Below, one piece after another: positions 9,001-12,000 of a stretch of 64,000 nucleotides of DNA. Within the stretch, counting starts at the first letter, position 1, and every line of letters begins with the position of its first letter. Origin of the DNA: Escherichia coli (GTDB lineage Bacteria; Pseudomonadota; Gammaproteobacteria; Enterobacterales; Enterobacteriaceae); NCBI RefSeq assembly GCF_036507355.1, contig NZ_AP027877.1; one strand, 5' to 3'. A program made the position numbers.

Positions 9001-12000
9001 AATGAGGCTTTAATACCTGCCTGGTATATTCCACGTCTGCCCGACAAATCATTGACGAAATTACCGTCATTATTCACCTTCACCCGGTTATCATCGACAA
9101 ATTCTTTGCGCACAGCCGCCTTCAGCCACGGCTCAATTTCCATACCGTTTCCCAGACGCATGTTGTAACTCAGCGTTGCGCCCAGTTCACGATATATACT
9201 GCGGGTATCGACTGATTTCGATTTCATGCCATTGGATAAATGATATTCGGGGTTATCAGCGGTGAACCCCGTTAACGATGCATACGGCGTCAGGTTCCAG
9301 TTACCATCGGTAAATCGCATCCCGGTTTCAATGTGACCGCCCAGCCCGTTGCTGTGGTAACTGCCATTGGCGGCTCCACCGCTGCTCATTTTACCGGCTA
9401 CGTTACTTTCAAAACGGTTCAGCTTCACGACACCGTCCAGATAGAAACCACTTTCATGTTCCCAACTGACATAGCCGCCCAGAGAATAACTGCCCACACT
9501 GCCATGTCCTCCACGATCAAAACCGATATGTGAATGGGAATAACCCATAAAAGCGCCCAGCGTCGCAATCCCCTCAGGAACATCATTACGGCTGTCGATC
9601 CCCCCTGTCATTCCGGTCAGCGTCTGCTCAAACCCGGCACCCGCATCAGTGGTGACATTATTACGGGTGTTATACGTCGCCCCCCAGACATTATTGTTGT
9701 GTGGACTCGCTTTCATTATGTTCAATCGCTCGCGAATACTGTTTAGCTCAGCATCAAATACCAACGGTAATGTTGCTGCCATATTGAGTACGGCTGCGGT
9801 AGAAGGCGTGATGCGTTTCTCCGGAACGGGTGTCGGCGTTGGATCGGGAGTCGGGTCTGGGTTCGGATTTGGGTTCGGATTTGGGTTTGGGTTTGGGTTT
9901 GGGTTTGGGTTTGGGTTGACATTATTGGTCAGGTTCCAGTTGCTGTTGCCGTCACTTTTCAGGACATACTCATAGGTCCCAAGATCAACGAAACCGCCGG
10001 TATTGCCCAGCGTAAACGAAGCATCCCCTCCCCCTGTTTTCACCAGCGTCATCGCGTCGTCAGACTGTGGGCTGACGCCGGTATCCTGAACAAAGATTTT
10101 AAAATTACCAGTGGCGTTGTTGTTGACGACCAGTTGATCGCCCCGGGAGCCTGCAACGTTGGTATGCAGGTAGAAGTTACCGCTGCCGGAAAGTTCATTG
10201 GTTGTCAGCGTATTGTAGATACCGTTAGTTGTGGCAGGCGCTGATAAATAAACATCACCGTCGTTGAGTAGCAAACTGTTTACGCTATATTCGCAGTTGC
10301 TGAAACCTGCACAGGAATTATTGCTGTTAAGCCAGACATTGCCCCGGCTGGCAGCCGTCAGGTCGGCAAGCGTCGTATCAACGCCATTGCCGATAGTAAA
10401 TGTCGCGCTATCGGTAATCCGGATCGCCCCTTCGAGTTTAACTGGCGTAACATTATCCCGTGGCGTCATTAACGACAGGCTTCCTGTCGCGCCACTGACC
10501 GATGCATCCGCCAGCGTACCTGCGTAGACGATTGCTGTCCCGCCAGCAACCTGGAGATCTTCTGCACGGGCCAGAGCCTGAAACTCATCTTTTGACCGCC
10601 CAAGGGTATATTGCCCGCCAGAGTTAACCTTTGTGGCGGAGTCCTGACCCAGGTTTTGCATTGCACCACCCTTGCCAACCGTGGAGTCACGGGCTTCGGT
10701 ACCTGCTAATACCAATAAATTACCGCCATTTTCCAGCAACACATTGGTCGATAAATTGCCGGCAATGGAAAAGGTACCGTACTGGTGAGTACCGCTGATT
10801 TCAATACCGTTAGCCGTGCTCGTCTGGAGAGCGGCACCGCTGCTTTGTACGATATCTGTCGCTTTGCCATTATCGTTGACTGTCAGCGTACCGCCTTCAT
10901 TGATCGTTGTTTTTATTGCCTCTCCGTTAGCTGAAACTGTTTGTATTCCGCCGTCGTTAATTGTTGTCTCATTCGCCACACCCTCGACAATTTGTTCACC
11001 ACCGGTGAGCGTCGTGCTTGTCGCAGTGGCTTTTGTTTTGACGATCTCCCGTCCGCCCGTATTGACCTGTGTTTTGTCAGAAGAGGTGTCTGACTCCACG
11101 GTTAACACGCCGCCATTTGCCAGCAGGATATTGTTCGCCGCACCCTGCTCGATGCTGAACGCGACGCCATCCGCGCGTGTTCCTGTGACCCGCGTCGCCC
11201 TGGTGGTTGCAACCAAAGCGCCCTGGCTACTCTGCTGTATCCCCGTTGCGCTGCCTTTCTCCCGCACATCGAGTGTGCCGCCATTGTTAAGTCTGGTGGT
11301 ATATGCTACGGCTTCCTCGTGGACAATCAGCTTACCGCCAGCATCAACGATGGTATCTACCGCCGAGGTTTGAGCTACGACCGTCAGTTCGCCGGTATTT
11401 TCCAGCACAACATGCTCAGCCCTGCCTCCGGTAATAGTGAAGTGAGATGACCTCTGGTATCCGTCAATATCAGTCCCCGCGCCCGTGTTGGCAACTAAAG
11501 CGCTCCCCGTGTCCAGGTAAACCCCATGTGCGATACCGCCGGTATGGACAATCAGAGTGCCTCCGGCACGAATATTGCTGCCAGTTGCCGTACCTCCTTT
11601 CTCAACAACCTGCTTGCTCCCGGAAGAGATATTTGTTGTGTCAGCTTTCCCGCCACTCTTGATATTTTGCGTGCCACTGTTGATATTGGTTCCCGTAGCA
11701 ATACCATGATTATAAATATTCTGTGTACCGCCATTAATGATGGTATTTGTCGCGTTTCCGGCAACATCCATAACCCCGCCATTATCTATTCGGGTCGCAT
11801 CAGCTTTAGCATTCGTTAAAACTGACATTGTTCCTTTATCGTTAATTATCGTTCCTGTAGAAATCCCTCCCTCACTAATTGTCTGGCTGCCACCGTTAAT
11901 GACTGTATTATTAGCCTGCCCCTGATAAGAGCCATGTCCAGACACCTCTTGATGTCCACCAGTATCAATAAGACTTCCATTAGACACCCCGCCATATACC

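Follow-up and report, generated by a model that had tools for sequence, protein, structure and literature searches.

The stretch of Escherichia coli DNA analysed here, all 64,000 nucleotides of which are referred to as the window (contig NZ_AP027877.1 of assembly GCF_036507355.1), carries next to minE a gene for an autotransporter adhesin in which six-base units, repeated in tandem, encode a run of Asn-Pro dipeptides. This tract is very probably an in-frame variable-number tandem repeat (VNTR) of a type Va autotransporter gene, in which the gain or loss of whole units alters the length of an unstructured stalk while the protein stays competent for translocation. The length polymorphism is genuine but of an ordinary kind; it does not act as an on/off switch and reveals no new mechanism. 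Polymorphic in-frame, proline-rich repeats are already known from autotransporter stalks, and the finding adds an E. coli case to this class, with an allele series that is unusually wide (10-43 units) and a stepwise mutational history that can be read from synonymous hexamers.

The gene, of the AIDA/pertactin type, occupies positions 8901..12212 on the minus strand (3312 nt, 1103 amino acids), as indicated by the list of open reading frames (ORFs), its translation, Pfam and NCBIfam matches and synteny. Tandem Repeats Finder detected within it a period-6 array at 9853-9917 (10.8 copies, 84% matches, score 95, consensus GGGTTT), while the window holds just one other array, a weak one (score 50). 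The longest run of period-6 self-matches in the window reached 32 nt, whereas none of 200 shuffles gave more than 10 nt; by this measure and by the array score the head-to-tail repetition of the unit exceeds chance. The weak array, a 17-nt tandem repeat of 2.3 copies, is situated in the pliG-ycgJ intergenic region (5790-5828).

The coding strand of the tract is the minus strand, on which it reads (AACCCA)6 AATCCG AACCCA AATCCG AACCCA GACCCG ACTCCC GATCCA ACGCCG ACACCC GTTCCG and is translated as (NP)10-DP-TP-DP-TP-TP-VP. The whole tract of dipeptides of any residue with proline (XP) therefore comprises 16 hexamer units at 9822..9917 (residues 766-797). Comparison of alleles identified the (Asn-Pro)10 core, written in the synonymous hexamers AACCCA and AATCCG (9858..9917), as the part that is longer or shorter in different strains, and its longest perfect run, (AACCCA)6 of 36 nt at 9882..9917, is the most slippage-prone segment of the window allele. 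The degenerate 3' part with heterogeneous codons (DP TP DP TP TP VP, 9822..9857) is nearly constant across the E. coli alleles of both this gene and its paralogue ypjA/ehaD, described below. The earlier note, made from the sequence alone, had recorded 13 hexamers of the form GG(G/A)TT(T/C) at 9841-9918, five of them perfect GGGTTT. The repeat is real, and both the number of hexamers and the five perfect copies hold in the register used there, but the general form fits only nine of the 13 units, the coding register gives six perfect copies of AACCCA, and the XP tract is about 19 nt longer, reaching 9822. Two features of the plus strand were rejected, as the terminator-like stems at 9851-9902 are an artefact of G-T pairing between GGGTTT copies of the non-coding strand, and the 108-codon ORF at 9649-9975 is a shadow of the repeat rather than a real gene.

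Copy number was compared among strains with a 381-nt query across the tract, which had matches in 2524 genomes. In the 120 rows listed, the matched spans were 342 to 540 nt long, and in all but LHM10-1 the difference from the query was a multiple of 6. Retrieval and reading of 25 tract loci yielded 20 intact orthologous tracts at the minE locus, which represent 19 distinct alleles with 10 to 43 XP units. The shortest tract was found in O55:H7 RM12579 (10 units), followed by the window and E105 (both 16), 300444 (22), EcPNK004 (23), CB209 (24), THO-008 (25), KK19-02, B1.H1.39 and O55:H7 DEC5B (27 each), O7:H15 ST70 (28), GON1437 and O166:H15 JNE21-009 (29 each), S1-SRL-01-C and O166:H15 JNE070796 (30 each), PEC1020 (32), 493/89 (33), TB06052 (34), ETEC4070 (39) and VE-T9 (43). 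The record of 493/89 is labelled O157:H7; presumably this is the sorbitol-fermenting O157 strain of that name. With a locus-specific query, extending from the minE end to the tract, at least 24 length classes of 10-43 units were found among the 59 orthologue rows listed. Strains thus differ by whole units at an orthologous locus, a few frameshifted or probably misassembled alleles aside, and the suggestion of a length-variable site in the earlier note is borne out, since a constant copy number in every homologue, which would have spoken against it, was not observed.

Repeat misassembly can hardly be the source of these differences. Many public protein fragments do end near the tract, which is suggestive of breaks in draft assemblies: two clusters of partial proteins, P0007 (291 residues, 2224 members) and P0008 (285 residues, 512 members; its only contig listed measures 856 nt), start or stop there, and short-read draft assemblies may break at or near the tract or at the paralogous copy. 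The tract may accordingly be a point at which draft assembly and annotation fail, and a few complete genomes also carry frame-breaking lengths. However, the genomes compared are complete assemblies, the tract does not exceed 258 nt and can be spanned by long reads and most paired short reads, the lengths differ by exact multiples of 6, and the synonymous hexamers form lineage-specific patterns. Moreover, independent assemblies of one strain agree (two of THO-008, as well as the duplicates of CB209, ECA64 and CB6837).

The internal structure of the alleles indicates where the changes occur. When the Asn-Pro hexamers are coded as a (AACCCA), b (AACCCG), c (AATCCA) and d (AATCCG), one allele family takes the form acdbb(ad)n a ccd a (c)m, with (n,m) equal to (3,6), (3,7), (4,6) and (7,9), and a sub-family without 'ccda' takes the form acdbb(ad)n a (c)m, with (n,m) equal to (2,6), (2,8), (2,9), (3,9) and (1,9). 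The five strains of this sub-family show no mismatches in flanks of about 1290 nt, yet possess 22, 24, 25, 27 and 23 units, respectively; because five lengths occur on identical flanks, the tract alters faster than nearby point substitutions build up. Two O166:H15 isolates of one study are separated by two events, (ad)4 to (ad)3 and c6 to c7. A second allele family varies in (b)7-9 and (c)2-7, and the O55:H7/O157 family extends from 'ada' up to a 26-unit mosaic of a and d. Within families, alleles differ only inside stretches where a 6- or 12-nt unit recurs unchanged, namely (AATCCA)n, (AACCCG)n and (AACCCA AATCCG)n. This confinement is the signature that slipped-strand mispairing or unequal recombination predicts, and copy number would be shifted by such events in runs of identical hexamers or of 12-nt double units. 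Mismatch repair recognises loops of 6 nt or more poorly. Each event would gain or lose whole Asn-Pro units, so that the reading frame and translocation competence would be kept and only the length of the spacer altered.

The same arithmetic bears on the second suggestion of the earlier note, that the tract might be a phase-variable site. Contingency loci of Neisseria and Haemophilus, in which the unit is not a multiple of three or the repeat lies in a promoter, switch surface proteins ON and OFF, and the present tract resembles them as a tandem repeat in a surface-protein gene that may change by slippage. A surface-adhesin gene with a simple repeat is indeed the setting in which a switch might be sought, and a few database alleles are frameshifted in or near the tract: the span was not a multiple of 3 in four of the 59 listed rows (D8, EC14, LHM10-1 and GN25). 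Nevertheless, a switch of this kind is extremely unlikely. The unit of 6 nt lies inside the ORF, about 2.3 kb away from the promoter region, its gain or loss cannot shift the frame, and the intact alleles all differ in length by multiples of 6, so the outcome would be graded length only. Because unit changes keep the frame, phase variation is rejected. The gene of LHM10-1 is annotated as frameshifted, but the lesions consist in altered lengths of A-runs within the tract (CCAAAA CCGAAA AACCCG), and they are plausibly homopolymer errors of long-read sequencing rather than slippage of units.

The position of the tract within the protein is consistent with a stalk. Pfam identifies six AIDA repeats (279 bits), a Pertactin domain (PF03212, 162 bits) and an Autotransporter beta-domain (PF03797, 155 bits, residues 842-1081), and the NCBIfam model autotrans_barl (TIGR01414) scores 326 bits. 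Directly N-terminal to the tract lies the pertactin-like C-terminal domain of the passenger, the junction or autochaperone domain (residues 644-762; 9927..10283, minus strand), recognised by PF03212, by PDB matches and by beta-strands in the structural model. On the other side follow a predicted alpha-helix in the barrel pore (residues 803-833; 9714..9806, minus strand), which begins right after the conserved motif ITPSTAAVLNMA, and a predicted 12-strand outer-membrane beta-barrel, the translocator (residues 841-1102; 8907..9692, minus strand). The C-terminal 463 residues matched in the PDB the barrels of Vag8 and BrkA, the C-terminus of pertactin and IgA1 protease. The protein thus displays two hallmarks of type Va secretion: a beta-helical passenger with AIDA repeats and a pertactin-like junction, according to Pfam and PDB matches, and a C-terminal 12-strand barrel after a pore-filling helix, according to Pfam, TIGR01414, AlphaFold and the BrkA and Vag8 matches. 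The N-terminal sequence MNRTSRYYFHRSVLSLLISAMIYAPPGMTA looks like a candidate Sec signal peptide. A start at the second ATG (12203), chosen by the Prokaryotic Genome Annotation Pipeline (PGAP) for the E105 orthologue, would give 1100 residues; neither the exact 1103-residue nor the exact 1100-residue protein was found in a collection of 15 billion proteins. Two weaker similarities of the protein were dismissed as compositional: the match to SslE, and that to trypanosome procyclin (PF05887, Trypan_PARP), which scored 27.1 bits against a gathering cut-off of 100 and reflects the XP composition only.

An AlphaFold model of the same C-terminal part, built with 15 homologues, had a mean predicted local distance difference test score (pLDDT) of 83.7. 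In this model, strands of the beta-helix extend to residue 123, a segment without regular structure occupies residues 127-157, a helix of 31 residues spans 163-193, and the 12-strand barrel covers 201-462, its strands having pLDDT values mostly above 85. The sole long segment of low confidence (pLDDT below 50) is model residues 127-157, that is residues 767-797 of the protein, and coincides with the tract. The placement of an (Asn-Pro)n linker between passenger and translocator, with six-base units that keep the frame, was correctly recognised in the earlier note and agrees with the translation, the Pfam domains and the model. According to the model, the tract would be a spacer between the junction domain and the pore helix, just outside the barrel at the cell surface.

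The following course of events may be proposed. Hexamers of the form AAY-CCR encode Asn-Pro, and the XP run would form an unstructured, probably polyproline-II-like stalk, which would link the last beta-helical domain, the pertactin-like junction, to the helix plugging the 12-strand barrel, outside the mouth of the barrel. At 3.1 Å per residue, a fully extended tract spans about 6 nm with 10 units, about 10 nm with the 16 units of the window and about 27 nm with 43 units. The length of the stalk would then set the stand-off of the adhesin from the outer membrane, within or beyond the layer of lipopolysaccharide (LPS) or capsule. The alleles may in any case provide a natural length series for the effects of a stalk on adhesin display through LPS and capsule, which is relevant to engineered surface display by autotransporters.

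An extension of this proposal, which we regard as unlikely, is that (NP)n acts as a heritable and reversible 'height adjuster', whose units of 0.6 nm would tune the projection of the beta-helix from about 6 to about 27 nm to the thickness of the O-antigen or capsule. If true, the adhesin would be masked and unmasked in a graded manner without the gene being shut off, a rheostat-type counterpart of ON/OFF phase variation.

The main rival explanation is neutral drift of a tolerant spacer, in which the tract would be a dispensable low-complexity linker without a length optimum, and the variation in copy number a by-product of mutation free of any phenotype. This is possible, though somewhat doubtful, and the evidence comes largely from the wider family. 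A homologue search with the C-terminal 463 residues returned mainly fragments and more distant paralogues, as the Asn-Pro repeat probably dominated word selection in the word-indexed search, which was capped at 8000 candidates, and it was used solely to compare linkers across genera. In an alignment of sixteen homologues drawn from Escherichia, Citrobacter, Salmonella, Klebsiella and Leminorella, the point of the tract is occupied by 0 to about 65 non-alignable Pro-rich residues, between strongly conserved flanks: GTYEY..W.L at the end of the junction domain, and ITPSTAAVLNMA at the start of the helix. The linker is absent (0 residues) in YejO-type proteins, the longest, of about 65 residues, is acidic and contains proline, and the Pro-rich linkers of Citrobacter, Salmonella, Klebsiella, Leminorella and E. 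albertii are unrelated in sequence. This suggests that the linker is a general, fast-evolving and dispensable spacer in this group of autotransporters, which appears as a near-pure DNA tandem repeat in the E. coli gene at the minE locus.

Drift would also fit the dispensability of the gene itself, kept in only 416 of 5426 genomes, as well as the broad, roughly continuous spread of lengths over 10-43 units with no obvious preferred value. What argues for some constraint is that all 398 Asn-Pro units of the 19 distinct alleles are four synonymous hexamers only, without any amino-acid substitution in the core. Such uniformity may point to constraint on the peptide, or else to repeated homogenisation, which could mimic it. 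Furthermore, the repeat number measurably alters phenotype in the analogous tolA repeat (PMC3477136).

Several observations weigh against the interpretation of the tract as a readily varying stalk of adjustable length. YejO-type homologues do without the linker, so secretion would seem not to require it, and its length may be of no consequence. At the paralogous locus, all listed K-12 derivatives share one length, and several near-identical pairs of strains have tracts of equal length. The identity of the roughly 1290-nt flanks in the five strains mentioned above is local identity only. The window allele has only six perfect copies, and its own instability may be modest. In addition, the adhesin ORF of the window strain is intact, but its expression appears uncertain, because an IS1 element lies 51 nt upstream of the first ATG and promoter-like sites occur only beyond it; the insertion sequence (IS) may either silence the gene or drive it. 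It is equally possible that most of the variation in length is drift that is tolerated.

Antigenic variation offers a further explanation, which we consider improbable, although it is less so than the switch rejected above. The surface-exposed (NP)n would be an immunodominant B-cell epitope, and variation in its number would evade or misdirect antibody. Such a role, as antigenic-variation or decoy epitopes, has been suggested for repeats of pertactin and for the NANP repeats of the Plasmodium circumsporozoite protein. By prediction, the tract lacks structure and is exposed at the surface, and circumsporozoite-protein constructs were among the PDB matches, a similarity that is compositional and arises purely through the Asn-Pro repeats. 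The pertactin repeat regions R1 and R2 have been discussed in terms of antigenic variation, but the antibodies characterised in the same work did not engage R1 or R2 (PMC8931430). Besides, altering the number of identical Asn-Pro units leaves the epitope itself unchanged.

An in-frame VNTR in a stalk remains the preferred reading, and it has several counterparts among envelope proteins. The unit motifs of pertactin are (GGxxP)n in R1 and (PQP)n in R2. Both are variable proline-rich repeat regions, the repeat numbers of which differ among alleles and species (PMC8931430). Like the tract, they are structurally unresolved in-frame repeats in a passenger of the pertactin fold, with R2 at the C-terminal end of the beta-helix, and residues 648-763 of the window protein, directly preceding the tract, match residues 419-534 of P.69 pertactin (1dab_A). 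In contrast, their units differ in sequence and size, the passenger of pertactin is cleaved from its barrel, its variation is discussed with regard to vaccine pressure, and only 13 Bordetella pertussis alleles are cited against lengths of 10-43 units for the tract. In TibA, an AIDA-type autotransporter of enterotoxigenic E. coli, the junction is followed, ahead of the membrane-embedded C-terminal domain, by an additional proline-rich domain at residues 627-677 (PMC3835316); by this published description, it occupies the same place as the tract.

The repeat of E. coli tolA is an in-frame VNTR in the spacer domain of an envelope protein as well. Among 234 isolates its copy number ranged between 8 and 16, and changes in its length affect stress tolerance. 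Every length tested was functional, to differing degrees, and contraction occurs at 6.9e-5 in a RecA-dependent, mutS-independent manner (PMC3477136). Unlike the tract, it has a 15-nt unit and belongs to an alpha-helical periplasmic domain of a core gene, and its function and dynamics have been measured, whereas the tract is known from sequence.

A literature search for a ypjA/EhaD tandem repeat, for a VNTR or multiple-locus VNTR analysis (MLVA) locus there and for an Asn-Pro repeat found, among the titles and abstracts listed, no paper describing the tract. It does not correspond to a locus of the generic E. coli scheme GECM-10 (CVN001-017 and CCR001; ten loci), as none of the 20 primers (Table 1 of PMC8143711) lies near the tract, and two chance matches with 4 mismatches occur elsewhere in the window. 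CVN016 was suggestive by its allele pattern, being absent in ST131 and long in ST38 and ST405 (PMC3407997), but was ruled out, its primers having no match in the window. The tract is possibly a typing marker for the approximately 8% of E. coli genomes that carry the minE-adjacent adhesin.

That share corresponds to the 416 of 5426 complete E. coli genomes in which the gene is kept through the tract. It lies between minE and ymgJ (8263-14268 of the window), with minC, minD and minE on one side and ymgJ, ymgI, ymgG, ymgD, ycgH and icd on the other, in a chromosome whose flanking sequence is about 98.4% identical to E. coli. E105 and ETEC4070 possess the intact gene at the same position, HS30-1, K-12, BL21 and ST131 retain only a C-terminal remnant of 344 nt, and typical O157:H7 strains have a larger remnant that has lost the tract. 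An exact-pattern scan of GTDB species-representative genomes, made with the conserved 3' flank of the tract, gave no match and so yielded no orthologue from another species.

PGAP names the orthologues 'adhesin-like autotransporter YpjA/EhaD', and the identity to E. coli genes annotated as ypjA/EhaD is 92-97.6% at the nucleotide level over the whole gene. In terms of identity, this would agree with orthology to ypjA of K-12, while locus and gene length do not, since ypjA proper (b2647) is a longer paralogue of 4581 nt elsewhere on the chromosome. Because of the different locus and length (3312 versus 4581 nt), the window gene is to be regarded as a minE-adjacent paralogue of ypjA/ehaD and not as an orthologue. 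RefSeq applies one gene name to the two paralogous loci. The YpjA/EhaD proteins encoded at the ypjA locus of K-12 and O157:H7 share with the window protein 93-96% nucleotide identity over the C-terminal half of the gene, the order of domains and the conserved linker end DP-TP-(D/E)P-TP-TP-VP, but differ in locus, in a 1526-residue passenger against 1103 residues, and in having a mixed (K/N/D/I)P linker instead of the near-pure (NP)n. The linker of this paralogue comprises 16-20 units with heterogeneous codons and varies by 12-nt units encoding KP-DP, of which there are four in O157:H7 strain 2571 and two in G5295. In G5295, the C-terminus of the ypjA-locus gene is cut off and adjoins a DUF6387 pseudogene fragment.

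The IS1 element upstream of the window gene is complete (768 bp; 12263..13030, plus strand), as established by alignment with the uninterrupted upstream region of E105 and by a match to IS1 transposase. It is bordered by 9-bp target duplications, CAGCAGAGC when read on the strand of the gene, at 12254-12262 and 13031-13039, and separates the autotransporter gene from its native upstream region. The minus strand showed no sigma-70-like site in the stretch from IS1 to the ATG, and the nearest promoter-like sites on that strand, beyond the element, are located at 13245-13218 and 13371-13343.

Further along, a second autotransporter gene (14324-15547) is truncated to a ycgH-like C-terminal part of 407 residues, the best matches of which are the barrels of ECSE_1600 and MisL, and an ORF for an IS3-family transposase (15661-16473) abuts it. 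A second IS1 transposase ORF (17105-17608) is situated just before icd (18420-19670). The presence of three IS copies in 6 kb suggests an IS-rich, perhaps Shigella-like, genome. The interval between ycgH and icd is much shorter than in HS30-1, where ymgF, pdeG and iraM intervene.

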